DNA of 64,000 nt from Nitrospirota bacterium. GTDB lineage: Bacteria; Nitrospirota; Nitrospiria; Nitrospirales; NS-4. The position numbers and the translations under genes are program-made. A model generated the notes under the pieces. The model saw nothing but the letters and a program-made list of their open reading frames with translations, had not been told where the DNA came from and did no database searches. Below are positions 31,459 to 49,258 of the stretch, in pieces. The first letter of the stretch is position 1; every line of letters starts with the position of its first letter. The stretch lies in the NCBI GenBank assembly GCA_005877815.1, contig VBOG01000078.1:13291-77290 (forward strand), in the 5' to 3' direction.

Positions 31459-33060
31459 TCACATCAAGGCCCTGACCCCGACAGGGCGCGTGCGTCGAGG
31501 CCTGATCTCTCCGGCGAGCACCCGAACAAAGATGTCGTGTATTCTTTCCGCGTGGCGGGCGTAATCGCGCCGGAACAACTCTTCCGCTTGGGCCTCCTCG
31601 GCATCCTTGTACCCCAACCGCAGCGCGCACACATGCAATTCGACAGGATCGGCGGATAAGGTGTGCGTCTGCTGTTCTTCCACCATCTGCAGCTTATGCT
31701 CCACGTTCCGGAGGAACCAATACCCATCGAGCAGAAACCGGTGCTCGCCCGGCCCGATGAGTCTGGCCCGGAACAATTTGCCCAACGCTTTTTCAGTATT
31801 GCGTTCTTGAACAGGCATGGCAGCGCCGAACATGGCCTGCAGAGTCTGGACCGCCAGTTCCACCTCGCGAATGCCACCGCGTCCAAGCTTCACGTTTCGT
31901 TCGGATTCTTCCCGAGCGACCATCTTCTGATCAATCAACCGTTTGATCCGCATGACCTCCGCCAAGATGGCCTTCGGTTGCGCCTTGCGGTAGACAAAGG
32001 TCCGGATGACCTTCAGAAAGCTCTTCCCGAGGGCTTTATCCCCGGCGACCGGGCGGGCTTTGATCAGCGCCAATCGCTCCCAGGGCTGTCCCCGCCCGCC
32101 TTGGTAATATCGGCCGTATTCCTTGAGCGACCCGACGATCGCTCCCGCTTTTCCCTCCGGCCGCAGCCGCAGGTCCACACGAAACAGATAGCCTTCATTC
32201 GTGACAGCGGACAGCGCATTGGTGACGTCTTGCGCCAGGCGGCGAAAATACTCGGCACGAGGCAGCCGTGAAGTCTTCCCGCCGCTCTTCGTTCCGGTCG
32301 TCGTCGCCGCGTCGGACCCGCACAGATAGACGAGGTCCACATCAGAACTGAAATTCAATTCCTCCCCGCCCAATTTCCCCATCCCCAGCACCGTGAATCC
32401 GGTGCGCGCATACCCGTACGCCTGAGCCAGTCCTTCCCTGCAGACCGCATATGCCTGCTGAATGAGGACGTCAGCCAGATGCGACAATGCCGCCGTCGTT
32501 TCGCGAACCGACGCCTTGCCCAATAGATCACGGATCCCGATCGCGAGCAACTCCCGTCGTTTGAATCGCCGAAGCGCGTCCAATTGACGTGCGTGCGACC
32601 GCAACGAGCCGAGCGTCGCACGGAGGTCCTTTTCCAGCACACGCCGCGATCGGCAGCGATCCAGCACCTCAGGTCTCGCGGCCCAATAGAGGTATTCCGG
32701 ATTCCGGATCAAGCTTTGAGAAAGAAAGGGGCTGGACCCGAATACGGTCATGAGCAGATGCAGCATCGCCGGGGAATCGTGGAGGGAGGAGAACAGTGCG
32801 ACTTTGCTTGACGACGCCTTCGCAAACCGCTCCAGATAGTCAAGCGCCTGGTCAGGGTCGGCAGAATCAGCGGCCTCGTCCAGCACCGCCTCGACCAGAT
32901 CCGCCAAGCGCTGCCGTGCCAAGGGATCGTCCGCGAGCGCTTGCAAATTGGCATCGGCGCGCGCGCAATCACGGAATCCGTATGGGCGCAGAATGTCGGT
33001 GACGGCATGCGCTCCTAGTTCCGGTGAGAGAAGCAATACGCGCGGAGAAGACCTGGGCAT
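31459..33060 (-). CDS. GlnE-family nucleotidyltransferase, single-module protein (resembles one half of GS adenylyltransferase)
   Basis: ...VLGMGKLGGEELNFSSDVDLVYLC... NTase motif followed by the GlnE helical domain (...RVDLRLRPEG...). Only one module in 533 aa. ATG 33060 is preferred over the track GTG at 33132. Confidence 0.75.
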   Translation of the reverse strand: MPRSSPRVLLLSPELGAHAVTDILRPYGFRDCARADANLQALADDPLARQRLADLVEAVLDEAADSADPDQALDYLERFAKASSSKVALFSSLHDSPAMLHLLMTVFGSSPFLSQSLIRNPEYLYWAARPEVLDRCRSRRVLEKDLRATLGSLRSHARQLDALRRFKRRELLAIGIRDLLGKASVRETTAALSHLADVLIQQAYAVCREGLAQAYGYARTGFTVLGMGKLGGEELNFSSDVDLVYLCGSDAATTTGTKSGGKTSRLPRAEYFRRLAQDVTNALSAVTNEGYLFRVDLRLRPEGKAGAIVGSLKEYGRYYQGGRGQPWERLALIKARPVAGDKALGKSFLKVIRTFVYRKAQPKAILAEVMRIKRLIDQKMVAREESERNVKLGRGGIREVELAVQTLQAMFGAAMPVQERNTEKALGKLFRARLIGPGEHRFLLDGYWFLRNVEHKLQMVEEQQTHTLSADPVELHVCALRLGYKDAEEAQAEELFRRDYARHAERIHDIFVRVLAGEIRPRRTRPVGVRALM

Positions 33061-33120
33061 GGTGGCATTATACCGTGGAAGCCGAGCGGGCACGAGGGAC
33101 GATCCGGTATAGTACCGGCC
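33061..33120. promoter_or_regulatory. divergent promoter region with -10-like hexamers abutting both start codons
   Basis: Plus strand: TATAGT (33108..33113), then 7 nt, then ATG 33121. Minus strand: TATAAT (33072..33067), then 6 nt, then ATG 33060. No Shine-Dalgarno motif before either ATG. The -35 regions are poor. Confidence 0.35.
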
Positions 33121-35283
33121 ATGACTCCTCACGCATTATGGCGTGCTCTCCTTGCCCGTCCCTGGGCTCTTGGGACGGACACGATTCGCGCCTACTGCGC
33201 CGGAATGCCGCCGGAGTACCGTGGACGATTCTCGGTCGAGACGATCGCCGAACATCTTCGGCTACTGGAAGATCTCAAAGACACGCCCATGCGTGTCCGT
33301 ATTACGCCGTTCGAAGAGGGGACTTTTGAAATCGTCATCGCGGCGCGCGATTATTTCTCTGAGTTTGCGATCATCACGGGGCTGCTGGCCGCCTTTGGAT
33401 TCGATATTCAGGAAGGCTTCATCTCCAGCGCTGAACGCTACATCCTGGATCTCTTTCGCGTACGGTCCCTTGGTTCACAGCGTTGGAACAGCGAGACGCA
33501 GAGTCAGTTTCAGGATGAGTTGACCTGGCTCGTCGGCCTGCTTGCCGAGGACCGCTTTCAAGAAGCGCGAGGACATGTGAACCGTCGTCTCACGGAAGCA
33601 CTGAGCGGCCGGGACGTCGCGGCCGCGCGGCTCGGACCTCTCGATGTTCAGTTCCGGAATCAGACGACGCGACCCTGGACCATGATGGAGCTCACCGGGA
33701 AGGATAGCCCCGGCTTCCTGTACGCCTTGGCCAATGCCTTGGCTCTTCGAGGCATCATCATACATAACGCCTACGTCCGCACCACGGCGCACGAGATCCA
33801 CGATCGGGTCGGCATCACCGATCGTCACGGCCGCAAAATCACGGGCACACGGCTCCAAGCCGAACTCCGCATCACGACGGTATTAATCAAGCAATTCACC
33901 CACTATTTGCCATCCGCACCGGACCCTGCCAAGGCCCTCGCTCACTTTGATGGAATGCTCGACCAGCTCCTCGCCGATACGCGAGCAGGCCGCATGCCCG
34001 CCTTTCTGCGCGAAAAAACCACCTTGGACTTTCTGGCCCGCTTGTTCGGGACAAGCGATTTTCTGTGGGAAGATTTTCTGCGGCGCCATCTTGACACCCT
34101 GCTGCCTGTCCTCCAAAAGCCAGGCCCAGTTGTCCGAGACCGGAATGAGTTGGCGCGCGATCTCCGCAAGCAACTTCGCCCGGCGACGACGTACACGGAA
34201 CGTAAAGAGATGTTGAACGCCTTCAAAGACCGGGAGTTGTTTCGCATTGATATGGCGCACCTGGCCGACCGCAACACTCGTCTGGAGCCCTTTTCCCTCG
34301 CCCTCTCCGATCTGGCGGAACTGGTCCTCGAAGAAGCGTGCCATGTGTGCGTCACCGAGCTTCACGTTGAATACGGCACACCGCGCATGTCCAACGAACG
34401 ACCCTCGCGGTTTGCCATCTGCGGTCTGGGCAAATTCGGCGGACGGGAAATGGGATATGCGTCCGATATCGAAGTGCTGTTCGTCTATGACGGGACCGGA
34501 GTGACTGACGGACGGACCTCTCTGGAGACCAGCGAATACTTTGAACGCCTGTCGCAAATGCTCCTGCATGTCATCGAAGCGAAGCAGGAAGGCATTTTTC
34601 ATCTGGATGTTCGACTGCGGCCGCACGGGGGAAAGAGCACCCTGGCGAGCTCCTTCGATGAAATGGCCCGGTACTACGCCAGGTCAGGCCCGGCGGCCGC
34701 GTTCGAGCGCCAAGCCCTCATTAAGCTGCGCTGGGTCGCAGGTCATCGCACCCTGGGAATGCGCGTCGAAAGGCTTCGGGACGCGCTTGTCTACAGTGAA
34801 GCGTCATTCGACATTAAAGCTGCGCTTGAACTACGAGCACGTCAGTCGGCGGAATTGGTTGGCCTCAGCGAAGTCAATGTCAAGTTCAGCCCAGGAGGGC
34901 TCGTGGACATCGAATATGCCGTGCAGTATCTGCAGATCATGCATGGCTCTCGTCATCCGGGCCTTCGCACGCCCACGACGCTTGCGGCTCTGTCGGCGCT
35001 TCGTAAGGCGGGGTTGCTGTCGGCGGCGGAGGAGACGGGACTGCGCGACAGTTATCTCTTTCTACGCCGGGTGATTGACGCCATGCGGATCGTCCGGGGA
35101 AACGCCCGGGACCTCGTGCTGCCTCGCTTGGACTCGGAGGAGTTTACCTTTCTGGCTCGGCGGCTTGGCTATCATGCGCCCCGCTGGAGCATTGGCACCG
35201 CGAAGCTACAGCGCGACATGTATCACCATATGTCATGGACTCATCGTTTCTTTAGATCGCGGTTTCGAAGCCCTTCCGCCTAA
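33121..35283 (+). CDS. ACT-ACT-like N-terminal region fused to a single GlnE-family nucleotidyltransferase module
   Basis: C-terminal 450 aa: ...ICGLGKFGGREMGYASDIEVLFVY..., ...HLDVRLRPHG... (GlnE module). N-terminal 270 aa: FEIVIAARDYFSEFAIITGLLAAFGFDIQEGFI... and WTMMELTGKDSPGFLYALANALALRGIIIHNAYVRT...DRVGITDRHGRKI, which resemble the ACT domains of GlnD. Confidence 0.75.
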   Translation: MTPHALWRALLARPWALGTDTIRAYCAGMPPEYRGRFSVETIAEHLRLLEDLKDTPMRVRITPFEEGTFEIVIAARDYFSEFAIITGLLAAFGFDIQEGFISSAERYILDLFRVRSLGSQRWNSETQSQFQDELTWLVGLLAEDRFQEARGHVNRRLTEALSGRDVAAARLGPLDVQFRNQTTRPWTMMELTGKDSPGFLYALANALALRGIIIHNAYVRTTAHEIHDRVGITDRHGRKITGTRLQAELRITTVLIKQFTHYLPSAPDPAKALAHFDGMLDQLLADTRAGRMPAFLREKTTLDFLARLFGTSDFLWEDFLRRHLDTLLPVLQKPGPVVRDRNELARDLRKQLRPATTYTERKEMLNAFKDRELFRIDMAHLADRNTRLEPFSLALSDLAELVLEEACHVCVTELHVEYGTPRMSNERPSRFAICGLGKFGGREMGYASDIEVLFVYDGTGVTDGRTSLETSEYFERLSQMLLHVIEAKQEGIFHLDVRLRPHGGKSTLASSFDEMARYYARSGPAAAFERQALIKLRWVAGHRTLGMRVERLRDALVYSEASFDIKAALELRARQSAELVGLSEVNVKFSPGGLVDIEYAVQYLQIMHGSRHPGLRTPTTLAALSALRKAGLLSAAEETGLRDSYLFLRRVIDAMRIVRGNARDLVLPRLDSEEFTFLARRLGYHAPRWSIGTAKLQRDMYHHMSWTHRFFRSRFRSPSA

Positions 35284-35720
35284 AACTCCTTGTACGGAAG
35301 CCATTTGCCGTTCATCGTAATTTTCACCCGCGCCTCGCCCTGGGCACCGGTCACTTTTTCCATATCCATCGTAAAGTCAATTGCGCTCATGATGCCGTCG
35401 CCAAACATTTCATTGGCCATGTCGCGCAGCGAGTCGCCGTATACGCCAACGATTTCCATCAATCGGTACTTGAACGGATCGGTCGTGATCGGAAAGTCGG
35501 TTCGCACCGGAAACCCCGAGACCGCATGCGCCACTTCCAACGTCAGTCCGAGCGCCGCCGCGAGCTTTTTCTCTTCATCCGGCCCAAGCCGCTGTTGTCC
35601 ATTGAGCACGGCGGCCATGTAGACGGGGTTCCTGCCCACGGCCTGCCCCAAGGCTTGAAAGGTCATCTTTTCTTCCTGTCGTTTATTCCGAATGATCGCC
35701 AACGCCTCCATCCTATCCAT
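35280..35720 (-). CDS. cynS: cyanate hydratase (cyanase)
   Basis: 146 aa. C-terminal ...SAIDFTMDMEKVTGAQGEARVKITMNGKWLPYKEF is the canonical cyanase catalytic domain. N-terminal HTH-like half. Confidence 0.9.
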   Translation of the reverse strand: MDRMEALAIIRNKRQEEKMTFQALGQAVGRNPVYMAAVLNGQQRLGPDEEKKLAAALGLTLEVAHAVSGFPVRTDFPITTDPFKYRLMEIVGVYGDSLRDMANEMFGDGIMSAIDFTMDMEKVTGAQGEARVKITMNGKWLPYKEF

Positions 35721-36549
35721 GGATTCCTCCTGTGTGATGACTCATTGCCTCCGCTGGACGGTCGCATCTGCGCGACCGTTCCACCAGGAAATGGATAATG
35801 TGGTTTCGAATCTTATAATAATGCGGGTGTTCAATGATCGAGGTCCGGCTTCTCGGCCGCGGGATGGTGATGTCTACGACTTCCGCAATCTCGGCTTCCG
35901 GCCCGCGCGTCATCAGCATGATCCTGTCGGACAACAAGATCGCCTCATCCACGTCATGCGTGACCATGAAGACCGTGTTTCGTGTCCGCATCCAGATGCT
36001 GACGAGTTCCTCCTGAATCGCCCCGCGCGTCAAGGCGTCGATCTGGGCAAAGGGTTCGTCAAGCAGCAAGACTTTCGGCTCGACCGAAAATGCGCGAGCA
36101 ATGCCCACGCGTTGGCGCATCCCGCCAGACAGCATGGCCGGCCGCTTCGAGGCGGCGTCGGTGAGGCCGACCATCTCGATGTACTTCAGCACGCAGGCAT
36201 GCACCTGGGTCTGTGCCCACGCAGGATGCGCCGCCTTCACGGCCACACGAATATTCTCATAGACCGACATCCACGGCATGAGGGCGAAATTCTGAAACAC
36301 CACCATTCGATCCAATCCCGGCGCATCAATCTCTTTGCCGTCGAGAACGACTCCGCCCGCCGACGCGCGCTCCAGTCCGGCGATGATGTTGAGGAGCGTG
36401 CTCTTGCCGCAACCCGAATGTCCGACCACCGTGACAAACGTGCCTTGATCAATGCCGCACTGCACGTCTTTGAAAATGCATTGCATGCCCCTGCCGCTGG
36501 GATCGGGGAAATATTTGCTGACGTACGAGACTTCCAAGAACGCGCCCAT
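35713..36549 (-). CDS. ABC transporter ATP-binding protein (NrtD/CynD, nitrate/cyanate/bicarbonate type)
   Basis: 278 aa from ATG 36549 (AGGAGAG upstream). GHSGCGKST Walker A, LSGGMRQR signature, LLLDEPF Walker B. The longer track ORF is rejected. Confidence 0.85.
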   Translation of the reverse strand: MGAFLEVSYVSKYFPDPSGRGMQCIFKDVQCGIDQGTFVTVVGHSGCGKSTLLNIIAGLERASAGGVVLDGKEIDAPGLDRMVVFQNFALMPWMSVYENIRVAVKAAHPAWAQTQVHACVLKYIEMVGLTDAASKRPAMLSGGMRQRVGIARAFSVEPKVLLLDEPFAQIDALTRGAIQEELVSIWMRTRNTVFMVTHDVDEAILLSDRIMLMTRGPEAEIAEVVDITIPRPRSRTSIIEHPHYYKIRNHIIHFLVERSRRCDRPAEAMSHHTGGIHG

Positions 36550-36557
36550 GGGCTCTC

Positions 36558-37367
36558 CTATTCTATGTAGGCGATGGCCCTGGCCAGCCGGGTGAACCCC
36601 GCGTCCAGGATCAGCCCGACGACGCCAATCACCAAAATGGCGAACATCACGCGAGTCAGCGAAAGATTGTTCCATTCATTCCACACGAAGTACCCGATGC
36701 CGGTGCCCCCCACCAGCATTTCGGCCGCCACGACCGCGACCCAGGCGCTCCCGATGGAAATGCGGAGGCCCGCCACGATAGTCGGTGCGGCCGCCGGCAG
36801 AATGACTTTGAAGAACCTTCCCCACCAGGACAACTGCAACAACGCGGCCACGTTGAGATAATCGCGCTTAATCGCGCTCACCCCGAATGCCGTATTCGCC
36901 AATGTGGGCCAGAGGGTGGACATGAAAATGACGAGAATCATCGCCCCCGTCGCGTCCTTGATGGTGTACAGAAACAGCGGCATCCAGGCCAGCGGCGAGA
37001 TCGGCTTGAGGATCTGAATATACGGATTCGCCGCCTTGAGCAGGATGGGATTCAGTCCCAGGATGACACCCAAGAAAATCGCGACCACCGACGCCAGACT
37101 GTAGCCGATCGCCACGCGACCCAGACTGGAGAGCACTTGAAAGCCGATCCCTTTATCGTTCGGACCGCGGTCGTAGAATGGCTCAGACAGCATTTCCCAC
37201 GTCACCGTGGCCACAGCCGCTGGTCCCGGAAGGCCCTGGGTCCGGCCTCCTCCCGACGGCGTGGAGGCCAATTGCCACACGAACAGGGCGGCGAACAGCA
37301 GGAGCGCCGAGAGCGCCACGGCCCGAAAGGTTTCATTTGGAACAGCCAACGTCATGACATCCTCCAT
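36558..37367 (-). CDS. ABC transporter permease (NrtB/CynB type)
   Basis: 269 aa, 6 TM, with a BPD-transporter loop region. Follows the binding-protein gene. Confidence 0.85.
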   Translation of the reverse strand: MEDVMTLAVPNETFRAVALSALLLFAALFVWQLASTPSGGGRTQGLPGPAAVATVTWEMLSEPFYDRGPNDKGIGFQVLSSLGRVAIGYSLASVVAIFLGVILGLNPILLKAANPYIQILKPISPLAWMPLFLYTIKDATGAMILVIFMSTLWPTLANTAFGVSAIKRDYLNVAALLQLSWWGRFFKVILPAAAPTIVAGLRISIGSAWVAVVAAEMLVGGTGIGYFVWNEWNNLSLTRVMFAILVIGVVGLILDAGFTRLARAIAYIE

Positions 37368-38638
37368 TACGTCCGGCGTATCGCAAAGCTATTCACATAG
37401 TCCTCCGGCCGCTCCGGATCGAACACCTTCCCATCCGCAAACCGATGCGTTTTCATGTTGTCCTTCGGTGCCTTGTGGCCCATCGCCTGCATCACCTCCC
37501 GGCAGCTCGATGTGAGATAAACCTCCTCGGCGATCTTCCGGTAATTCACGTCACCTTTGATGTATCCCCACCGCTTCATCTGCGTCAGGATCCAGATGGC
37601 CATCGAATGCCAGGGATAGGGATCGAAGTCGATTCGATCCGGAACCGTACGCGTGTTGCCGAGACCATCAGGGAAGGTGCCAGTGAGAATCTGCTCCAAC
37701 ACTTCCACCGGTTGGTTGAGATAGTTCTTCGGCGCGATGGCCTTCGCAATGTCCTTCCTGTTCGCTTTATCAGAGGCGTGCTCCGTCGCATCCACGATGG
37801 CCTTCAGCAATGCCTTAAAGCTGTTCGGATTGCCCGTCGCAAACTCCTTCGAACAGGAAAAGGCGCAACATGGGTGTCCGTCCCAGATGTCCTTAGACAG
37901 CAGGTGGATAAAGCCAAACCCTTCGAAGACGGCCCGTTGATTGAAGGGGTCGGGCCCCAAATAGCCGTCCAGATTGTTGGCGCGTAGGTTCGCGACCATT
38001 TCGGGCGGCGGCAGCACGCGAATCTGTACATCCTTGTCTGGATCCACTCCGCCCTCCGCGAGATAGTAGCGGAGCAGAAAGTTATGCATGGAATAGTCGA
38101 ACGGCACGGCAAATTTGAATCCCTTCATGTCCTTGGGCGCCTTCACCCCTTTGTGCTTGAGATGAAGCGTGATGGCCTGCCCGTTGATGTTCTCGATGGC
38201 CGGCATGAGAAACGGCGCCGATTGCGACCCCACCCCCATGGTGATTGCCAGCGGCATCGGCGTCAGCATGTGCGTCGCGTCCGTCTGCTTATTCAGGGCA
38301 AAGTCACGGATCATGGCCCATCCCGAGGCCTTGAGGACTTCCACGTTCAGCCCGTATTTCTTATAAAATCCTAACGGCTCGGCCATGATCAACGGCGTCG
38401 CGCAGGTGATCGGAATGAATCCAACCTTGAGGTCGGCCTTCTCCGGCTTCCCAGGAGCATCCGCCGCCCATGCCTGGAGATCGTTCAGCGGCAAGATGTC
38501 CTTGATGATCGCGAGGGCGGCGGCCGCCCCTACCAGCTTGAAGAATTCCCGGCGGCTTCGTCCCTGACCTTCGAAAAGGCCGTATAGCACGGCGCCCTCA
38601 ACCAGTTCGGCCATTCGCTCGTTCGGTTCCGTATCCAT
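37367..38638 (-). CDS. periplasmic substrate-binding protein (NrtA/CynA type) with twin-arginine signal
   Basis: ...GRSRREFFKLVGAAAALAI... Tat motif, NMT1/NrtA-like body. ATG 38638 follows AAGGAGG. Cyanate versus nitrate/nitrite specificity is not resolvable here. Confidence 0.8.
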   Translation of the reverse strand: MDTEPNERMAELVEGAVLYGLFEGQGRSRREFFKLVGAAAALAIIKDILPLNDLQAWAADAPGKPEKADLKVGFIPITCATPLIMAEPLGFYKKYGLNVEVLKASGWAMIRDFALNKQTDATHMLTPMPLAITMGVGSQSAPFLMPAIENINGQAITLHLKHKGVKAPKDMKGFKFAVPFDYSMHNFLLRYYLAEGGVDPDKDVQIRVLPPPEMVANLRANNLDGYLGPDPFNQRAVFEGFGFIHLLSKDIWDGHPCCAFSCSKEFATGNPNSFKALLKAIVDATEHASDKANRKDIAKAIAPKNYLNQPVEVLEQILTGTFPDGLGNTRTVPDRIDFDPYPWHSMAIWILTQMKRWGYIKGDVNYRKIAEEVYLTSSCREVMQAMGHKAPKDNMKTHRFADGKVFDPERPEDYVNSFAIRRT

Positions 38639-38654
38639 GTGACCCTCCTTGAGC

Positions 38655-38690
38655 AATAAAAAGGCGCCAGCATGCCTGTATGCTGGCGCC
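38655..38690 (-). terminator. intrinsic-terminator-type hairpin placed just 5' of the cyn/nrt binding-protein SD (5 nt from U-tract to GGAGG, 16 nt to ATG; candidate attenuator)
   Basis: Minus-strand RNA: GGCGCCAGCAU-ACAGGC-AUGCUGGCGCC-UUUUUAUU. An 11-bp perfect stem with a hexaloop (A at position 1, G at position 4). About 110 nt after the glnA stop. Confidence 0.65.
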
Positions 38691-38746
38691 CTTGCCAGGG
38701 CCGCCCCTTTCTCCACCACCATGTGGCCAAGAGGCGTGTGATGACT

Positions 38747-38785
38747 GGGACGACGACCGGATCGTCATTGGTCCGGTGCCATCCC
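38747..38785 (-). ncRNA. long imperfect hairpin in the glnA-cyn/nrt spacer with apical AAUGAC loop
   Basis: Minus-strand GGGAUGGCACCGGA...UCCGGUCGUCGUCCC (about 14 bp, one bulge). The apex can close as C-G around the hexaloop AAUGAC (A1/G4). Folded by eye only. Confidence 0.3.
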
Positions 38786-38799
38786 GACTTTTCTAGAGA

Positions 38800-40209
38800 C
38801 TACACGTCATAGTAGAGGAAGAATTCATAGGGGTGCGGACGAAGCCGCATTGGATCCACCTCTTTCGTCCTCTTGTAGCTAATCCAAATATCCACGACGT
38901 CCTGCGTAAAAACATTTCCCTTTAACAGAAAGGCATGGTCCTTTTCCAGGTTCCGCAGCGACTCCTCCAAGCTTCCCGGCATGGTCTTGAGCTTGGCCGC
39001 CTCGTGCGGCTCGAGATCATAGAGATCTTTTTCCATGGCATGGCCCGGATCAATCTTGTTTTCGATGCCGTCCAATCCTGCCATCAGCATGGCGGCAAAC
39101 GCATAGTAGGGATTGGTGGCTGGGTCGGGGAAACGGACCTCGATCCGCTTCGCCTTCGGATTCGGCACATACATCGGGATGCGGATCCCGGCGCTCCGAT
39201 TCCGGCTGGAATAGGCGAGATTCACGGGCGCCTCGAACCCCGGCGTCAGACGCTTGTACGAGTTCGTGGTGGGATTCGTAATGGCCGCCAGGGCGGGCGC
39301 ATGTTTTAAGATGCCACCGATGTACCACAGGCACAACTGGGAAACGCCGGCGTACTCCTTGCCGGCAAAGAGCGGCTTCCCATCCTTCCAGATGCTCTGG
39401 TGTGTATGCATGCCGGACCCATTGTCACCGAACAGCGGCTTGGGCATGAACGTGACAGTCTTGCCGTGTCGCCGGGCTACATTTTTAATGACGTACTTAT
39501 ACATCATCATCTTGTCGGCCATGGTCGTCAGCGTGTCATACCGAAGGTCGATCTCCGCTTGCCCTGCCGTCGCGACCTCATGATGGTGTTTCTCGATCAT
39601 GATACCCATCTTTTGCATCTCATCGACCATCTCACTGCGAATGTCCTGCTGGGTATCAATGGGTGGAACAGGGAAATAGCCTTCCTTATGGCGCGGTTTG
39701 TTGCCGAGGTTGAAGCCCTCTTTGCCGGAATTCCAGATGCCTTCGTCCGAATCGATGAAGTAGTAGCCGCTGTTGCTCGTCTGATCGTAGCGCGCGTTAT
39801 CAAAAATAAAGAACTCGGCTTCCGGTCCCCAGTACGACACATCGCCGATCCGCGTAGACTTCAGATACTTTTCCGCCTTTTGCGCCACGAATCGGGGATC
39901 CCGGCTGTAATTTTCGCGCGTGATGGGATCGACGACGTTACAGATCATGCTGAGCGTCGGCATGCTCGTAAAGGGATCCATTACGGCAGTCTTCGTGTCC
40001 GGCACGATCATCATGTCGCTGTTGTTGATCGCCTGCCACCCACGAATCGATGAGCCGTCGAATCCCGAACCGTCGGTGAAGACCGAATCCGTCAATTCTT
40101 CGATCGGGATCGTGAAGTGCTGCCACGTTCCCGGAAAATCGACGAACTTCAAATCCACCATGATGGCCTTGTGTTTTTTTGCCAGCTCCAGCACTTCCTT
40201 CGCAGTCAT
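38800..40209 (-). CDS. glnA: glutamine synthetase type I
   Basis: 469 aa. ...FDGSSIRGW..., ...[16 protein letters not shown]..., adenylylation-loop ...[10 protein letters not shown]... with the Tyr retained. Confidence 0.95.
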
Positions 40210-40248
40210 ACCGCCCTCCCTCCGTACATAAAATAAGCCTCTGTTCTC

Positions 40249-42927
40249 TCATGGCAACGAGGTTCGTTGCACGACCGGACGCCCCGCCCGATCTCCTCCG
40301 AAGAATTGTTCGATTCGCGTCGTGATCTCGGCGCTGATGGCGTCGCAGCGGTCCTGCGCCTCAACTTTCTCGCCGCCCTCATCCGTCACATAAAAGACAT
40401 CCGCCACCTGGTCGAGTTTCGTGGCGATCCTTGCGGCATGCACCGAAAGACCGAGATCAAAAATGGTTTTTGTCAGTACGTACAGCAGCCCCTGCCGGTC
40501 GTCGGCAAAGACGTCGATGATGGTATACCGATCCGACGTCTCATTGTCCACCTGCACGACCGTGGGTTCTCGAAGGGGGACACCCTGTCGGCCGGCGCCG
40601 AAACGCGTTGCCTCCCGGAGCAGTTTTTCCACGTCCATGCGACCTTCCAGGACCGCAATGATGCTCTCGCGTATGTCGCCGGTGCGCCGCGTCTCCGGGC
40701 CTTCCGGGTAGTCCGGATCGAGCACATGGAAAACGTCCACCACCACGCCGTCAGCCAGCGTCATGATCTGTGCATCGAGAATCTGTACGCCCCTTGATGC
40801 CAACACACCCGCAATCTTTGAAAAGATGCCAGGCGTCAGGCTGTCGCGAGTGTAGACGGTATATTCCGTCGCGTTGATTCCAGGATGGTGCTCGGCATCC
40901 ACCAGCACGGTGGCGTCATTGAGCCTCCATAACCATTCCAAATGGGATGCGATCCGCTCCACGGTCAGGACGGAGAAAGCCCGATCCGGCCACGCTTCAA
41001 GCTGGCGGGTCAACCATTGCACCGGCAGGCGATCCTCCAACCGCTGGAGCACAGCTTTCCGGACTTCCATCTTTCGAAGCCGATCCTGCTCCGTCGCCTC
41101 GCGTCCCTCTTCCCTGGCCAACTCAGCGAGCGTCTTGAGATACAGCTCGCTCAACAGCGTCTCCTTCCACTTGGTGAAGACGTCCGGGCCAACGGCGGAG
41201 ATGTCGGCGGCCGTCAACACGTACAACTTCTTCAATGCCTCGGCCGTGCCGACCTCACGGGCAAACCGCAGCACGACCTTGTCGTCGGATGCGTCCCGCC
41301 GAAATGCCGTATTTGACATGAGCAGGTGATGGCGGACCAGGAAGGCCAGCAGTCGGGTCTCATGTTCTCCCAAGCCGAGACGCGCGGCGGTCTCCCGTGC
41401 GATCCGTTCTCCGACCACACTGTGATCTTCACCCTGTCCCTTTCCCAGATCGTGGAGCAGCACGGCGAGGTACAGCACTTCTTTGTGTTTGATTTCCTGA
41501 TAGGCCTGACCGAGCATGCCAGGCGCCACGCCCAGTGTTTCGGCTTGGCCTAGCGCAAGCAGACTGTGATGGTCCACGGTGTACTTGTGATAGGCATTGA
41601 ACTGCATGAGGCCACGAACCGGTCCGAAGGCAGGGATCATGCGTTCCAGGAGGCGCACGCGATGCATGCAGGCGAGGCTGTCGGCGGCGGGCGCTGTCCC
41701 GTCGAGCATGGAAAGAAATGTACGGCATGCGTCCGCACTGCGAAATGCCGCATCGGGGACCGTCCCCAGCCGCTCGGAAAGATCCTGCAGCAATTCGTCG
41801 GCGATCGCGAGGCCATAAATCTGACCAAGTTGAAAAAGCCGTAGCACTCGGGCATCGTCCTCCAGGAATTGCTTCCGCAGAGAGACCGGTACGGTGATCT
41901 CATCCCGCGTGATCGCAAAATACGTTTCGATCTGACGGGCCGGCAGCCAAGCCGAAAGCCGCTGCCAGAACGACTTGACCATGGCCCGTGAGACGAATTG
42001 CCCCGTCACGTCGGCCACATGCGCTGAATGCCGATAGTACTGCTGCATGAACTGCTCGACCGACAACAGGTGCGGCGCGTTCTGAAAGCCCCAGGCAGCC
42101 GCGATCCTGATCTGTTCATCGAAGGTGAGGATGTCCTGGGCACGCCCGGCATGAAAATGCAGTTCATTGCGGATGCGCCAGAGGAAATCCTGGGCGGCCT
42201 TGATCGACACGGCATCACCGGTGGCCAGGACGCCCCGTTCAGCCAGCGCTTCAAAAGAGGGCGTACCGTAGCGGGCCAGTGCCACCCACTTCAGCAAATG
42301 TAGGTCTCTCAGGCCTCCCCGACTCTTCTTCAGGTTGGGCTCGAGCAGGAAGGTCGTCGCCCCGAAACGCCCATATTCACGCCGGCGCTCTTCAAGCTTT
42401 TGCAGGATGAATTCCTGTATCGCATTCCCTGTCACCTGTTCCCGGAAGGTCAGACTGAACTGCTGAAACAGGGTCGCATCCCCGGCAATAGATCGGGCTT
42501 CCATGAGCGACGTTCGGATGATCAGTTCGGCCCGCCCCATCGCCAAGCAGTCCCCGATGGTCCGTAAGCTATGGCCGACTTGAAAGCCTAAATCCCACAG
42601 GGCGTGCAAGACCTTCGTGGAGACAGAGCGGGCGAACTCTTCCCGGTCAGGACCATACAGAAACATGAGATCGATATCTGAATATGGCGACAGCTCCCGA
42701 CGACCATAGCCGCCCAGGGCGACAAGACAGACACCTTCCGGCGCGACGCCTCCAACGGCCTCACGGAATACCTCCATGAGAATGTCATCCGTCAGCGCCG
42801 TCAAGGCCCGCACGATATCCGTGCCGCCGCTTCCCTGACGGTGCGCCGCTGCAATGGCGGAACGCCGGGATTCGAGCCTCTCCCGTGTCCACACTTCCGG
42901 CGCGCCGATTTTCAGCGCTTCTCCCAT
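40249..42927 (-). CDS. glnD: [protein-PII] uridylyltransferase/uridylyl-removing enzyme
   Basis: 892 aa. NTase (...ALGGYGRRELSPYSDIDLMFL...), HD domain (...LHDLGKG...), two C-terminal ACT domains. Confidence 0.9.
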   Translation of the reverse strand: MGEALKIGAPEVWTRERLESRRSAIAAAHRQGSGGTDIVRALTALTDDILMEVFREAVGGVAPEGVCLVALGGYGRRELSPYSDIDLMFLYGPDREEFARSVSTKVLHALWDLGFQVGHSLRTIGDCLAMGRAELIIRTSLMEARSIAGDATLFQQFSLTFREQVTGNAIQEFILQKLEERRREYGRFGATTFLLEPNLKKSRGGLRDLHLLKWVALARYGTPSFEALAERGVLATGDAVSIKAAQDFLWRIRNELHFHAGRAQDILTFDEQIRIAAAWGFQNAPHLLSVEQFMQQYYRHSAHVADVTGQFVSRAMVKSFWQRLSAWLPARQIETYFAITRDEITVPVSLRKQFLEDDARVLRLFQLGQIYGLAIADELLQDLSERLGTVPDAAFRSADACRTFLSMLDGTAPAADSLACMHRVRLLERMIPAFGPVRGLMQFNAYHKYTVDHHSLLALGQAETLGVAPGMLGQAYQEIKHKEVLYLAVLLHDLGKGQGEDHSVVGERIARETAARLGLGEHETRLLAFLVRHHLLMSNTAFRRDASDDKVVLRFAREVGTAEALKKLYVLTAADISAVGPDVFTKWKETLLSELYLKTLAELAREEGREATEQDRLRKMEVRKAVLQRLEDRLPVQWLTRQLEAWPDRAFSVLTVERIASHLEWLWRLNDATVLVDAEHHPGINATEYTVYTRDSLTPGIFSKIAGVLASRGVQILDAQIMTLADGVVVDVFHVLDPDYPEGPETRRTGDIRESIIAVLEGRMDVEKLLREATRFGAGRQGVPLREPTVVQVDNETSDRYTIIDVFADDRQGLLYVLTKTIFDLGLSVHAARIATKLDQVADVFYVTDEGGEKVEAQDRCDAISAEITTRIEQFFGGDRAGRPVVQRTSLP

Positions 42928-42929
42928 GG

Positions 42930-43298
<369 letters not shown>

Positions 43299-43336
43299 CT
43301 AGTCAATGATCTTCTAGAAGGACGAGCGCTCCGACC

Positions 43337-43373
43337 AAAAAACGGCTGTGCCGACGACAGTGGTCGCCGGCAC
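43337..43373 (-). terminator. weak terminator-like hairpin between amt and the P-II gene
   Basis: Minus strand GUGCCG...CGGCAC, then agccg, then UUUUUU. The imperfect stem and the 5-nt gap before the U-run keep confidence low. Confidence 0.3.
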
Positions 43374-43517
43374 GCGATGATGCTCGCAAAACAGCGCCTT
43401 CGCCCATGGGACGAATGGGCTGGTTGCGAGACTCCCGAGGATACTCCGAGTGTCGGAAAAAATCATCATAGCCGAAGCGTCCTGTCCAGACAACCACCAT
43501 CTCACACGCGCCGCTTC

Positions 43518-45023
43518 TCACGATTCCTGGGCGCGTACCCGGATAGGGAATGCTGCAGTCTGCGGCTGCTGCTCAGGATAGCCGAAGATTCCGTGTTCGC
43601 TCATATCCAACCCCTCAAGTTCCTCCTCGGGACTGACCCGAAGCCCGATCGTCACCTTGATGATATAGAAGACCAGCAGGGACGCCACAAAGACAAAGGC
43701 GAACGAGGCCAGCACTCCGCCCAACTGCACCAGGAGCTGGTGAAATCCTCCCCCATAGAGCAATCCGGGCTGTCCGACCACCAGCAACTTGACCCGCTCC
43801 GGCGTGGCAAACAACCCATTCGCCAGCGTACCCCAAATTCCCGCCATCCCATGGACCGAGATGGCACCAACCGGATCGTCAATACTCCAGCGGTCCACCG
43901 CCAGCACACCTAGGACGGCAATGGTCCCCGCGACTGCTCCGATGACAACGGCCGCGCCGGGATCGACAAAGGCGCACGAAGCGGTGATGGCAACAAGCGC
44001 CGCCAGCGCACCGTTCGCCGCCATGGTCATATCGGGATTGCCGATCACGATCCATGCCACGAACAACCCGGCCAGGACTCCTGAGGCTGCGGCTAGGTTC
44101 GTGGTCAACGCCACATATGCGAAGTAACCGGGTTCTGGGTTCATGGCAGAAAGGGTGCTGCCCGGATTAAACCCGAACCAGCCGAACCAGAGAATGATCG
44201 TCCCGAATATCACCATGGGAATGTTGTGGCCAAGAATTGCCGTCGGCTTGCCGTCTTTCGTGAACTTCCCGATCCGCGGACCGAGTAAGATGGTGCCTGC
44301 GAGCGCGGCCGAGGCGCCTTGAAGATGCACGACGGTCGAACCGGCAAAATCTTGCATGCCTATTCCCGCCAGCCAGCCTCCTCCCCAGATCCAATGCCCG
44401 ACCACCGGATAGATTGCCGCCGAGAAGATCGTTCCAAACAGAAGGTAAACGATCAGCTTGGTGCGCTCAGCCATCCCGCCCCACACAATGGCCAATGAGA
44501 CGGCGCAAAAGACGACTTGAAACATGTACTTCGCGCCGAGCGACACGCTGCTATAGGACAGCGAGGCAAAGACCTCATTAATCTTGTCCCCCGCCACATC
44601 CAGAAACCATCCGCTCGTGCCGACAATAGCATTGCCTGCACCAAAGCAGACCGCAAAACCGACAGCCCAAAATGTGATGGAGGCGATCGCGAATACGAGA
44701 AGATTCTTCATCGCGGTGTGCCCCGCATTCTTTGCCCGTGAGAATCCACATTCGAGCATCGAAAAGCCCGCCTGCATGAACATCACCAGGACTGCCGCAA
44801 CGAGCACCCAGACGGTATCGAGCGAGATGTCCTGCTTCGTCGGCGGAGCGTTGGGAACCGCTTCAGGTGATGATACAGCCGCGCCAGGTTCAGCGGCTTG
44901 GGCCAACAGCGCGGGAACTGGGGCGAAGACTTCAGAGATTGCTTGTGCGAATACCGGTCCGCTCATGATACCCACACACGCGATTACCAACACACTGTGC
45001 AATACAGTTGGTCGTGATGTCAT
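43518..45023 (-). CDS. amt: ammonium transporter (Amt family)
   Basis: 501 aa from ATG 45023 (AGGAGAG upstream). Signal-like N-terminus, ...DFAGSTVVHLQGA..., ...HGMAGIWGTLA... Amt signatures. The track start at 45122 would overlap the upstream gene. Confidence 0.9.
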   Translation of the reverse strand: MTSRPTVLHSVLVIACVGIMSGPVFAQAISEVFAPVPALLAQAAEPGAAVSSPEAVPNAPPTKQDISLDTVWVLVAAVLVMFMQAGFSMLECGFSRAKNAGHTAMKNLLVFAIASITFWAVGFAVCFGAGNAIVGTSGWFLDVAGDKINEVFASLSYSSVSLGAKYMFQVVFCAVSLAIVWGGMAERTKLIVYLLFGTIFSAAIYPVVGHWIWGGGWLAGIGMQDFAGSTVVHLQGASAALAGTILLGPRIGKFTKDGKPTAILGHNIPMVIFGTIILWFGWFGFNPGSTLSAMNPEPGYFAYVALTTNLAAASGVLAGLFVAWIVIGNPDMTMAANGALAALVAITASCAFVDPGAAVVIGAVAGTIAVLGVLAVDRWSIDDPVGAISVHGMAGIWGTLANGLFATPERVKLLVVGQPGLLYGGGFHQLLVQLGGVLASFAFVFVASLLVFYIIKVTIGLRVSPEEELEGLDMSEHGIFGYPEQQPQTAAFPIRVRAQES

Positions 45024-45069
45024 AGCGCCACTCTCCTTTTGCGAACGGCACCTCCGTTGCTTCCAAACA

Positions 45070-45936
45070 TCAATAATTGATGTCGAGTTGCACGGTCCAC
45101 TTCCACTGGCCATTGATGACATGGTCGTTGAACCAGACTGGACCGGTCAGGAGACTGATGTCTTTGGTAAAGTAGTGATACATTCCGAAGCCACCGCCCC
45201 CGATGAAGTTTTTCCCGCTGGCGTAGTCCGCGGCAAACACCCACTTGTTGTACTCGTTGCCTTCCTTATCTTTGACTTTCCAGAACCCATAGTCGTATCC
45301 GACCATGCCGCCGGCATTATCCAATTCGCCGCTGGCCCCGGCTATGCAAGCCAGTGCGGGATTTCTCGGGTTGGGTTTGCATCCTCCCTGCCGCATCAGG
45401 ACTGAATCAGGATTACCGTAATACCCGCCACCATGGATTCTGCCGAAGGAGCCGAGTGTTTTACCGACAATAATATCGATAATGTCCATGTTAGTGACTT
45501 CGCTTTTCGTCCCGACGTTAAAAATGCCCACATTGATGGCCGGGAACCAGGTACCGAACGCGCCCTCGGGCGTGCCGATTTTAGCGTTGAAGAGTAACGA
45601 ATTGCCGATCGACCGCATGACGGGACTGATGCGCGTGCCTGGAAACAATCCATCAATCCCGACTTCCATCTGGAGTTTTTCAAAGGGCAGCACGCCGACT
45701 GTCAGACCCACATCCGTGGGGAATGAATCGAATTGGCCGTTCGCCAACTCTTCCTGCGTTCTCGAAAGCCGAAAGTAATTGTCCACCCCGATGTGCCACA
45801 CATTAAACGGTTGCACGTCTGATGTGGCCGGGGTCCAGTACGTCGTCGAGGGAGTGGCATAGGCCATGCTTGCCATGCACACTCCCGACAACGTCGTCAC
45901 CATCGCGGTCTTCAGAATTCGCGTCATCATCTTCAT
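45070..45936 (-). CDS. putative outer-membrane beta-barrel protein (family not recognised)
   Basis: 288 aa from ATG 45936 (GGAGG upstream). Signal peptide ...CMASMAYA. Gly/Tyr/Asn-rich alternating segments and a C-terminal ...WKWTVQLDINY aromatic end typical of OMPs. First gene of the amt string. Confidence 0.5.
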   Translation of the reverse strand: MKMMTRILKTAMVTTLSGVCMASMAYATPSTTYWTPATSDVQPFNVWHIGVDNYFRLSRTQEELANGQFDSFPTDVGLTVGVLPFEKLQMEVGIDGLFPGTRISPVMRSIGNSLLFNAKIGTPEGAFGTWFPAINVGIFNVGTKSEVTNMDIIDIIVGKTLGSFGRIHGGGYYGNPDSVLMRQGGCKPNPRNPALACIAGASGELDNAGGMVGYDYGFWKVKDKEGNEYNKWVFAADYASGKNFIGGGGFGMYHYFTKDISLLTGPVWFNDHVINGQWKWTVQLDINY

Positions 45937-45995
45937 ACTGTCGCCTCCGTCGTGCTCATGCAGAAGGTTGTCGTGCGGTCGCTTTCGCTGCAATC

Positions 45996-46043
45996 CGCGA
46001 CATCGTTGTCACGCGTCAGAAGCCGTTCGGCATTGAATCGGCT
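45996..46043 (-). ncRNA. tandem hexaloop hairpins matching the ANTAR RNA-target architecture
   Basis: Minus-strand RNA. P1 (46043..46021): AGCCGAUUC-AAUGCC-GAACGGCU (8 bp, one bulged A). Linker UCUGACG. P2 (46013..45996): CGUGAC-AACGAU-GUCGCG (6 bp, including a G.U that would be a C.A mismatch on the other strand). Both loops have A1 and G4. Confidence 0.45.
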
Positions 46044-47818: not shown

Positions 47819-47860
47819 AAAAGAAAACGTCCTCAGACCCTCAGGGAAGAGTCGGAGGAC
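47819..47860 (-). terminator. terminator-type hairpin 14 nt upstream of the nadE start (candidate attenuator)
   Basis: Minus strand GUCCUCCGAC-(12 nt)-GUCUGAGGAC (10 bp, one mismatch) followed by GUUUUCUUUU. The nadE SD (AGAGGA) and ATG follow immediately. Confidence 0.45.
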
Positions 47861-47870
47861 GACATCGTCC

Positions 47871-47930
47871 AAACACAAACGGCGCCTTTCCTTATTGAAT
47901 CCGGCAACCGGATCAGCAAGGAAAGACGCC
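47871..47930 (-). terminator. strong intrinsic terminator after the ANTAR regulator gene
   Basis: Minus strand GGCGUCUUUCCUU...(inner AUCCGG-uug-CCGGAU)...AAGGAAAGGCGCC (13 bp, one G.U) followed by GUUUGUGUUU. Confidence 0.6.
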
Positions 47931-47940
47931 GTCGTCAGTC

Positions 47941-47960
47941 GCAGCACCACACTGTGCTAC
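47941..47960 (-). ncRNA. 7-bp hairpin with A1/G4 hexaloop just 5' of the terminator
   Basis: Minus strand GUAGCAC-AGUGUG-GUGCUGC. Lies 32 nt after the regulator stop and 10 nt before the terminator stem. Confidence 0.3.
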
Positions 47961-47992
47961 GGCGGGACTTTTACCAGAGGACTCCTAGGGTG

Positions 47993-49258
47993 TCAAGGCT
48001 TTTTTTCCCCTATTCGCCTATCCAATTCTCCGGCAAGGAGAATCGCCTCGGCAATGTCCCTCATTGAACGGCGGGTGTCCATGCTCTGCCGTTGCATCAG
48101 ACGGAAGGCCTCTTCTTCAGAAATCCGCTTGCTCTGCATCAGCACGCCCTTCGCCCGTTCGACGGTCTTGCGGACAGCGAGCGCTTCCTGCATCTCGAAA
48201 GACTTCTCCATTAAGCTGGTGTTTTCAATGGCAATCGCCGCCTGATTGGCCACCGACTGAAGGACCTTGCGCTCCTCCTGTGAGAACAAATGCTCGTGGG
48301 CCGTATAGCTGTTGATGACTCCGATCGGCTTGTCCTTGACCAACATCGGAACGGACAGGAGAGAGCACAGACCTTCTTTCCGGGCAAGGTCGGAGTACAT
48401 ATAGTCCGGATCCTTCGTCACGTCCAGCACCGCGATCGGTCTGCGTTCCTTGAGAACACGCCCGCTGATACTTTGGCCTACTTTCAAATTCGGCTTGCTT
48501 CGATACATCTCACTCAGGCTTTGCGTCGCCGCGATCTTTAGCTCATCTCGTTCCGGGTCCAAAAGCATGATCGAGCACGTCGTCGAGCCCATCATCTGAG
48601 CCGTCATGCTCACCAACAGGTGGAGGATTTCATCGAGCAATCGGCCCGAAGTGATGGTGGCGCTGACCTCGGAGAGCGTCTCCACCTGGCGCGCCTTCCT
48701 CGTGACTTCGGCGTGCAATCGCGCCGTCTCAATCGCCCCACCGACCTGCCGTCCGATGGTGGTCATCAATGCGACCTCGTGCGGGCGATGGCGATGAGGC
48801 TGCTTGTGCTGGAGGTTAATGACTCCAATGATATCGTGCTTCACGATGAGGGGAACGGACAGAAATGCCTGGTGCCGATCCTCCGGCAGGTTGTGGAACA
48901 TCTTAAACCGGGAATCGTCGCTCGCATTGCTGGCGATTGCAACTGTCCGGCCCTGTTGTGCGACCCAACCCGTGATGCCTTCGCCCAGCCCCAACCGGAC
49001 CCGACCGATGAGTTTCGGATGGGGGTTCAAGGAGGCTTTCAGCACCAGCTCGTCTTTATGCGAATTCAGCAAGTAGACAAGGCAGGAATCAGCCTTCGTC
49101 ACCTGCACGGCGATGTCCATAATGTCACGGAGGACGCAGTCCAGATCCAGATTGCCGCTGACCGTTTCGGCGATCTGATGAAGGATCTCCGCTTCACGCG
49201 TTTTTTCCCGCAGCAATCGGCGAAGCGTCGTGTCGGACGCCTCTTCGGTTCGCTTCAT
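47993..49258 (-). CDS. GAF-GAF-ANTAR RNA-binding antitermination-type regulator
   Basis: 421 aa from ATG 49258. Two GAF domains (...ADSCLVYLL...GEGITGWV...; ...CSIMLLD...GQSISGRV...). C-terminal ANTAR ...ALAVRKTVERAKGVLMQSKRISEEEAFRLMQRQSMDTRRSMRDIAEAIL. The ATG overlaps the aroB stop (ATGA at 49255..49258). The longer track ORF is rejected. Confidence 0.8.
   Translation of the reverse strand: MKRTEEASDTTLRRLLREKTREAEILHQIAETVSGNLDLDCVLRDIMDIAVQVTKADSCLVYLLNSHKDELVLKASLNPHPKLIGRVRLGLGEGITGWVAQQGRTVAIASNASDDSRFKMFHNLPEDRHQAFLSVPLIVKHDIIGVINLQHKQPHRHRPHEVALMTTIGRQVGGAIETARLHAEVTRKARQVETLSEVSATITSGRLLDEILHLLVSMTAQMMGSTTCSIMLLDPERDELKIAATQSLSEMYRSKPNLKVGQSISGRVLKERRPIAVLDVTKDPDYMYSDLARKEGLCSLLSVPMLVKDKPIGVINSYTAHEHLFSQEERKVLQSVANQAAIAIENTSLMEKSFEMQEALAVRKTVERAKGVLMQSKRISEEEAFRLMQRQSMDTRRSMRDIAEAILLAGELDRRIGEKKP

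Follow-up and report, generated by a model that had tools for sequence, protein, structure and literature searches.

How are the genes for cyanate uptake and cleavage transcribed when a terminator-like hairpin stands directly in front of them? The question arises in a 64-kb stretch of DNA from a Nitrospirota bacterium (contig VBOG01000078.1), the whole of which is called the window here. A short spacer separates glnA from the cynABD-cynS genes, which encode a cyanate/nitrate-type ATP-binding cassette (ABC) transporter and a cyanase. The element and the operon features are located on the minus strand, in the order amt, P-II, glnD, glnA, spacer, binding protein, permease, ATPase and cynS. Judged by its sequence, the segment 38735..38655 (-) is likely an ANTAR-type antitermination switch between glnA and the cyn genes. 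The comparison set consisted of 80 genome loci, retrieved with the binding protein as query, together with 10 metagenome contigs; most are from Nitrospirota (L numbers below). In 31 of the 80 genome loci, glnA and the binding-protein gene share a strand, with glnA upstream.

Terminator and tandem hexaloop hairpins in the glnA-cyn spacer

The 161-nt spacer that an initial annotation of this DNA had described lies between the stop codon of glnA (38802..38800) and the following ATG (38638), and the perfect 11-bp hairpin with U-run reported there is present exactly (38690..38655, minus strand). In a terminator scan, A-U and G-U pairs extend the stem to 14 bp over 38693..38660. A G+C-rich stem (8 G-C pairs in 11-14 bp), a loop of 6 nt and the U-run UUUUUAUU give it the make-up of an intrinsic terminator. 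No other terminator-like site in 35000..46000 comes near it in length; the total of such sites in this region (8, shuffle mean 9.2) is not above chance. The stem ends (38663) 24 nt and the U-run 16 nt before the ATG, the latter as annotated. Because this gap is only 16 nt, a promoter cannot be located downstream of the terminator, a point already made in the annotation. The GGAGG Shine-Dalgarno sequence follows the U-run after 6 nt and not after 5 nt.

Folding of the spacer (176 nt), which the annotation had named as a check, yielded three hairpins with z = -4.75 against 200 shuffles. The long distal hairpin with an apical AAUGAC, also claimed there, exists in the fold (hairpin A, 38785..38747). 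Relatives of the window's own class (class A) have a hairpin just past the glnA stop as well, with a sequence unlike the window's in the spacers read. Hairpin A is probably a 3' structure of the glnA message and located outside the switch.

ANTAR proteins bind a substrate of two small tandem stem-loops with hexaloops. The second of these overlaps a terminator, and most such substrates precede genes of nitrogen metabolism. Within the loops, A at position 1 and G at position 4 carry the most weight, and EutV tolerates linkers of 5-12 nt (PMC3369931). The initial annotation had assigned such a pair to the terminator loop and hairpin A. This assignment does not hold. The terminator loop ACAGGC was rejected as an ANTAR loop, since it is not conserved, and hairpin A is not favoured as the first hairpin: it is located 48 nt from the second, compared with 12-16 nt in relatives. 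The motif CAAUGA, common to hairpin A and L003, may reflect close kinship only. The pair is formed instead by P1 (core 38726..38713) and P2 (38698..38683), which removes the annotation's caveat that the two loops are too far apart. GCCUCUU/AAGGGGC pairing lengthens the P1 stem to 38735..38703. Bases 38690..38683 belong both to P2, as part of its loop and its 3' arm, and to the terminator 5' arm; hence P2 and the terminator are mutually exclusive. P2 occurred in no unconstrained fold, where the terminator or a GCCCU-GGCA-AGGGC hairpin formed in its place.

An alternative hairpin, GGCG.CCCU-GGCA-AGGG.CGCC (38706..38684, minus strand, -14.7 kcal/mol), shares bases with P2 in a different register and takes in the beginning of the terminator 5' arm as well. 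The pairing of GGCGGCCC..GGGCGCC with the left terminator arm, as annotated, exists. Its register is specific to the window and is not conserved in L001-L003.

The linker between P1 and P2 measures 14 nt from the 4-bp core stem and 4 nt from the extended stem. In class-A relatives, a hairpin with an [A/G]NNGNN hexaloop precedes P2 by 12-16 nt. Four metagenome contigs of the same class (L137, L161, L174, L188) have such hairpins 13-16 nt ahead of P2, and the 14 nt of the window are therefore typical of its class. Other Nitrospira classes have linkers of 3-10 nt or about 20-25 nt. The P2 loops were AANGRC in all dual hairpins resolved. The P1 loops have mostly A and sometimes G at position 1, and always G at position 4, which was a requirement of the hairpin search. 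Examples of P1 are GGCCUGAC-AGCGUC-GUCAGGCC in L018, GCCCGAC-AACGUC-GUCGGGC in L013, UGAC-AAAGAA-GUCA in marine Nitrospirales and GAUAGGUC-GGUGCC-GACCUAUC in Nitrospira.

Conservation and RNA structure of P2

The spacers of the three closest relatives (L001-L003, 85-87% protein identity) share an identical block, CTGGCAA[A/G]GGCGCCAG, followed by the terminator and a U-run, and are otherwise unalignable. The terminator hairpin, whose presence at orthologous loci had been named as a check in the initial annotation, was found in L001, L002, L003, L018, L052 and L065. Its loop varies (GGUGA in L002, GCAGAAC in L003, a long insert in L018, L052 and L065) and is, for this lack of conservation, not a recognition loop. 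Loop and distal stem drift between relatives, while the proximal GGCGCCAG is fixed. In those relatives whose spacers were read, bases of the P2 loop and 3' arm serve again in the terminator 5' arm.

The P2 16-mer is exact in 10 of the 80 loci, with binding proteins 64-87% identical to that of the window, and near-exact in many more. The conserved form across loci is a 5-bp hairpin with a hexaloop, CUGGC-AARGGC-GCCAG. Its degenerate 12-nt core G[GA]CAANG[GA]CG[CT]C occurs 136 times in 1.8 Mb (both strands, loci and window), against an expectation of about 3-4 by our own arithmetic from uniform base frequencies. A T-run follows in 106 of these occurrences. A 16-mer scan of metagenomes returned 120 stretches. 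The 10 with a matching terminator downstream were used, and the other 110 are presumed to be mostly chance matches. A search with Rfam gave no match at gathering score in the whole window and just chance-level matches (E >= 0.78) in 38400..39000.

Stem pairing was analysed in 73 distinct P2 copies against 1000 shuffles. The first pair outside the search pattern is a standard pair in 63 of the 73 copies (shuffled mean 32.7, maximum 44), namely G-C in 30, A-U in 14 and U-A in 14. The next pair outward is formed in 49 of 73 (shuffled mean 31.2). Counted from the loop, the second pair takes the form G-C in 40 copies and A-U in 32, and never A-C, though the pattern permitted it. G-U pairs are present, which a DNA palindrome would not tolerate, and 106 copies are located on the gene strand compared with 7 on the other. 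A hand-anchored alignment of 22 dual-hairpin seeds, from which the window was excluded and in which the linker was cut to 6 nt, showed changes on both sides in 6 of 9 pairs and a covariation score of 0.543 (0.205 shuffled). On this sequence evidence, the P2 motif is taken to act as an RNA structure. A MAFFT alignment of the untrimmed seeds was discarded; it placed the 5' arm of one class on the 3' arm of another. The covariance model R1 built from the trimmed alignment is short, with about 1 bit per position, and on the loci it recovered mostly its own seeds. Its best full-length match in the window (56528..56572, plus strand) is antisense inside pilM, lacks the P2 hexaloop and was treated as a chance match.

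The GAF-GAF-ANTAR protein and further copies of the element

A candidate for the cognate antiterminator, proposed from sequence, is a GAF-GAF-ANTAR protein encoded 9 kb upstream of the cyn switch. A search with an approximate ANTAR consensus found one domain in the window (48184..48038). Identity is 65% or higher across the protein's best 120 listed homologues, of which the named ones all belong to Nitrospirota, Nitrospirales, Nitrospiraceae or Nitrospira. The contigs of relatives examined share a conserved cluster, aroC-aroB-ANTAR-[attenuator]-nadE-amt-PII-glnD-glnA-[attenuator]-cyn, and in all genomes examined the ANTAR gene is located directly upstream of the nadE-leader attenuator. Its ATG overlaps the aroB stop codon (ATGA, 49255..49258) in a gene order kept in relatives, and the regulator appears to share a transcript with aroC-aroB and to be coupled to them in translation.

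In NCBIfam, the second GAF domain is similar to those of PtsP (E = 2e-37) and NifA (E = 2e-27), with scores well short of the full-length cut-offs. Glutamine and/or 2-oxoglutarate are the signals to which the PtsP and NifA domains respond. As a lead only, this likeness suggests nitrogen status as the signal.

The leader of nadE, encoding a glutamine-dependent NAD synthetase, is a second ANTAR-type site. It begins with a strong sigma-70-like promoter, TTGACA (47996..47991)-17-TAAAAG (47973..47968), followed by a P1 hairpin GUAGCAC-AGUGUG-GUGCUGC (47960..47941) and a P2 hairpin GAC-GACGGC-GUC (47936..47925), which overlaps terminator 1 (47933..47878). In a second unit, GGAC-GAUGUC-GUCC (47870..47857) overlaps terminator 2 (47860..47829), which is followed by a U-run. 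The same two-unit layout is present in the Nitrospira contigs L081, L082 and L083. The leader of the gene at 45933 (46040..45935) is not regarded as a target: a single AACGAU hexaloop hairpin stands there, with neither a second one nor a terminator (fold z = -0.01).

Further copies of the element precede extra amt genes in relatives. In some Nitrospira (L012, L013 at 4559..5894, L021, L039, L043 and L056), a sigma-54-dependent activator gene (AAA+ motif GESGTGKE, no receiver domain) is located between glnA and cynA and is itself preceded by a dual-hairpin terminator element. Another copy follows cynS in front of a transporter read by eye as a member of the formate/nitrite (FNT) family (L001 at 9831, L003 at 9469, L033 at 9577, L041 at 9625 and others). 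In L083, cynS directly follows glnA, and the next called gene carries the Pfam domain Form_Nir_trans. Taken by their sequences, the copies before FNT transporter, amt and sigma-54 activator genes look like a regulon.

Proposed mechanism and alternative explanations

By default, the nascent RNA would form the terminator of 11-14 bp, and RNA polymerase would halt 16 nt before the cynA start codon. The predicted energy is -24.7 kcal/mol for the terminator and -7.0 kcal/mol for P2 alone; because of this difference, the terminator should win and the cyn genes should be off unless P2 is stabilised. An active GAF-GAF-ANTAR dimer is proposed to bind P1 (loop AUGGUG) and P2 (loop AAGGGC), as expected from its family. 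Closed P2 would sequester GGCGCCAG in the terminator 5' arm, the terminator would not form, and transcription would enter the transporter and cyanase genes. In this lineage, transcripts most likely begin upstream of glnA, such that the element would decide on the extension of the glnA message into the cyanate genes. The signal is probably the cellular nitrogen status, perceived via the GAF domains. A conditional terminator of the ANTAR type, possibly served by the GAF-ANTAR protein of the same cluster, had been put forward in the initial annotation. This proposal gained support, and from its sequence the terminator is very probably conditional.

The origin of the transcripts depends on promoters in the spacer. 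In canonical Nitrospira, 19 of 20 glnA-cyn spacers contain an extended -10 promoter, TTGACG-N14-16-TGnTAyA (e.g. L033, L041, L042, L046, L049). It is located 24-42 nt past the glnA stop in 18 of 19 loci and 114 nt past it in L067, and two attenuators follow in series. A position weight matrix (PWM) built from these 19 conserved promoters scored 18.4 on the window's own nadE-leader promoter. On the window spacer with the last 100 nt of glnA, it scored 2.1 (null median 2.5, null 95th percentile 9.3), and the other class-A loci (L002, L003, L018, L052, L065) scored -0.8 to 1.3, below the null median. A generic sigma-70 scan found nothing in the window spacer and no sigma-70-like match in the other class-A loci, and inspection of the spacer by eye gave no match to the sigma-54 pattern TGGCAC-N5-TTGC. 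A sigma-54 promoter in TGGCAAGGGCGCCAGCA was rejected; by eye, its GG and GC stand one base too far apart, and L001 no longer has the GC. Since no promoter was recognised in the window spacer, read-through from glnA, one of two origins considered in the initial annotation, is the most likely source of cyn transcripts in this lineage.

The other origin considered there, a cyn promoter inside the spacer or in the last glnA codons, would leave the switch as it is and make it the 5'-leader attenuator of an independent cyn operon. Canonical Nitrospira provide a model for this arrangement, with a promoter about 25-40 nt past the glnA stop and ahead of the same kind of element. It is nevertheless rather unlikely for the window, which, like the class-A loci, scores at or below the PWM null median and has neither a sigma-70-like match nor, by eye, the sigma-54 pattern; moreover, the glnA stop and P1 are just 66 nt apart, and hairpin A takes up 39 of these. 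The dual hairpin might also be read by a factor other than the GAF-GAF-ANTAR protein of the cluster, either another RNA-binding protein or a small ligand as in riboswitches. The pairing of protein and element is drawn from co-occurrence and synteny, and further ANTAR genes were sought within the 64-kb window. Such a reader is improbable, given an architecture that equals ANTAR substrates feature by feature, the lack of an Rfam family match in the window, the little space that two hairpins of 4-6 bp leave for a ligand pocket, and the ANTAR gene immediately upstream of one target in all genomes examined.

The hairpin, canonical and strong as an intrinsic terminator and placed right behind a highly expressed gene, could simply be the constitutive terminator of glnA, with cyn expression by leak-through and incidental conservation upstream. 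This explanation would leave four genes, including cynS, without means of expression. It is very improbable also in view of the 16-nt block in and upstream of the 5' arm, which is kept across genera while loop and distal stem drift, and of the recurrence of motif and terminator before nadE, amt, FNT-transporter and sigma-54 activator genes with no gene end ahead. In the window, CTGGC-N6-GCCAG is a perfect inverted repeat of DNA and might be read as the operator of a dimeric DNA-binding regulator. Many copies, however, pair only via G-U (e.g. GGGAC...GUCCU) and are asymmetric in DNA; the loop (AANGRC) is asymmetric too, and the strand bias and the overlap with terminators make an operator hardly credible.

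Several points weigh against the ANTAR-type switch fed by read-through from glnA. The linker of the window, with 14 or 4 nt, is outside the working range of EutV, and the P1 core stem has just 4 bp. The covariance model hit only P2 in the window (local match, 16.8 bits, E about 0.04) and did not join P1. The percentage of paired positions is partly circular, with seeds found by a hairpin search; the exchanges of pair types are not. The alternative hairpin 38706..38684 competes with the hexaloop form of P2 and could be a protein-independent antiterminator. Finally, canonical Nitrospira do carry a promoter between glnA and the element, and a weak or non-sigma-70 promoter is possible in the window spacer.

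Features of the locus and neighbouring genes

The coordinates are compiled in Table 1. A transcript of glnA would enter the switch element, and the binding-protein gene would, by its position, be the first gene gated by it.

Table 1. Features of the glnA-cyn locus and of the associated ANTAR gene and leader in the window
Feature	Coordinates	Strand	Evidence or remark
P1, CCAC-AUGGUG-GUGG core 38726..38713, loop 38722..38717 (A1, G4)	38703..38735	-	Minimum free energy fold; hexaloop scan
P2, putative antiterminator hairpin CUGGC-AAGGGC-GCCAG, loop 38693..38688 (A1, G4)	38683..38698	-	Hexaloop scan; 16-mer conservation; covariation
Terminator stem-loop, 11 perfect bp	38690..38663	-	Arms GGCGCCAGCAU 38690..38680 and AUGCUGGCGCC 38673..38663; loop ACAGGC 38679..38674
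U-run UUUUUAUU	38662..38655	-	Sequence
Shine-Dalgarno GGAGG	38648..38644	-	6 nt after U-run, 5 nt before ATG 38638
Hairpin A, imperfect 14 bp, apical AAUGAC, no U-run	38747..38785	-	Fold; 15 nt past glnA stop
glnA, type I glutamine synthetase	38800..40209	-	Pfam Gln-synt_C/N; NCBIfam TIGR00653, 676 bits
NrtA/CynA-type periplasmic binding protein, twin-arginine signal	37367..38638	-	Pfam NMT1_2; orthologues align from residues 1-13 onwards
ABC permease, NtrB-type	36558..37367	-	TIGR01183, 215 bits, above cut-off
ABC ATPase, NtrCD-type; start codon uncertain (~36570)	35713..36570	-	TIGR01184, 330 bits, above cut-off
cynS, cyanase	35280..35720	-	Pfam Cyanate_lyase; TIGR00673 above cut-off
glnD	42927..40249	-	
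P-II	43277..42930	-	
amt	45122..43518	-	
nadE leader, second ANTAR-type site	47819..47996	-	Sequence; fold z = -6.0
GAF-GAF-ANTAR protein, 421 aa from ATG	47993..49258	-	Pfam GAF x2 + ANTAR (PF03861, 75.8 bits)

Two GlnE-like genes are located beyond cynS on opposite strands (31459..33132, minus; 33121..35283, plus), and their 5' ends overlap by 12 bp. Both carry GlnE and GlnD_UR_UTase domains; the plus-strand gene also has an ACT-domain match and runs 4 bp into the end of cynS. By its sequence, the pair appears to be a glutamine synthetase adenylyltransferase that was split or duplicated. The spacer of 240 nt between amt and P-II (43278..43517, minus strand) contains a promoter-like site (43493..43465), followed by a terminator-like hairpin (43373..43348) with a U-run about 70 nt before the P-II start. 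A dual hexaloop was not found there by eye. The hairpin may be another kind of attenuator or just the amt terminator. Between nadE and amt, a 287-aa protein (45070..45933, minus strand) with a hydrophobic, signal-peptide-like N-terminus (MKMMTRILKTAMVTTLSGVCMASMAYA) had no match in Pfam or NCBIfam. The Nitrospira contigs L081 and L083 lack this protein between nadE and amt. It may be an outer-membrane protein.

Implications for nitrogen metabolism in nitrite oxidisers

In soils, waters and treatment plants, nitrite is oxidised mainly by Nitrospira and relatives, whose cyanase lets them feed ammonia oxidisers from cyanate. In the literature searched, nothing was found on the regulation of cyanase, ammonium uptake or glutamine synthetase in these bacteria, and no relevant paper joined ANTAR with Nitrospira, cyanase or cynS. 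The locus offers a concrete, testable mechanism, in which the nucleotides of the RNA switch are defined and a candidate protein is named. The switch recurs across the phylum before several nitrogen genes. It provides a model for the control of cyanate use and nitrogen assimilation in nitrite oxidisers and an example of a switch that would gate the extension of a glnA transcript. It would also present a natural regulon for the GAF-ANTAR architecture, which is abundant in databases. A table of characterised ANTAR antiterminators in a 2025 review contains AmiR, NasR, EutV and Rv1626 and no GAF-ANTAR protein. As the mechanism class is already established, the gain is in scope and biology, not in principle.

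A wider role of the GAF-GAF-ANTAR protein is conceivable, if doubtful. As the main nitrogen-status regulator of Nitrospirota, it might sense 2-oxoglutarate and/or glutamine by its PtsP/NifA-like GAF domain and open a chain of attenuators before nadE-amt-glnB-glnD-glnA and cynABD-cynS, and in relatives before FNT, extra amt and sigma-54 activator genes. Lengthening of the glnA transcript would in that case turn on the use of cyanate by nitrite oxidisers, and the protein would be the first of the GAF-ANTAR kind to have both its regulon and its ligand defined.

Comparison with known ANTAR systems

On sequence level, the window fits every feature of an ANTAR target save the strict linker range. 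The targets of EutV (eut, Enterococcus faecalis), NasR (nasF, Klebsiella) and AmiR (ami, Pseudomonas) likewise consist of tandem A1/G4 hexaloop stem-loops (PMC3369931), lie upstream of genes for nitrogen metabolism and have an ANTAR protein encoded nearby. The sensor differs, a double GAF in place of REC, NIT or AmiR_N. The linker spans 12-16 nt in the class of the window, unlike the 5-12 nt of EutV. Other differences from the targets of these three proteins are the almost invariant P2 loop and closing pairs (GGC/GAC-AANGRC-GYC) and the location of the window element in a gene-to-gene spacer without a recognisable promoter. The putatively gated genes also differ, being a cyanate/nitrate-type ABC transporter and cyanase, neither of which was found in the supplementary files of Ramesh et al. 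2012 (PMC3369931).

NasT/NasS of Pseudomonas, Azotobacter and Bradyrhizobium (PMC10783516, PMC6759348), which act on nitrate-assimilation leaders, resemble the proposed switch in the ANTAR-dependent read-through of a leader terminator and in the control of genes for nitrogen assimilation and for NrtA-type transporters. The nitrate sensor NasS holds NasT, a REC-ANTAR protein, whereas the GAF sensors are fused to ANTAR here. The regulon comprises nas and nir genes in the case of NasT/NasS, and would comprise nadE/amt/glnA-side genes together with the cyanate genes in the present one. Actinobacterial ANTAR RNAs, which work at the level of translation (PMC8164766), share the dual hexaloop hairpins as targets of ANTAR proteins. 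They overlap start sites or ribosome-binding sites, usually without terminators; in the glnA-cyn spacer, by contrast, the Shine-Dalgarno sequence is free, and the terminator with its U-run forms the expression platform.

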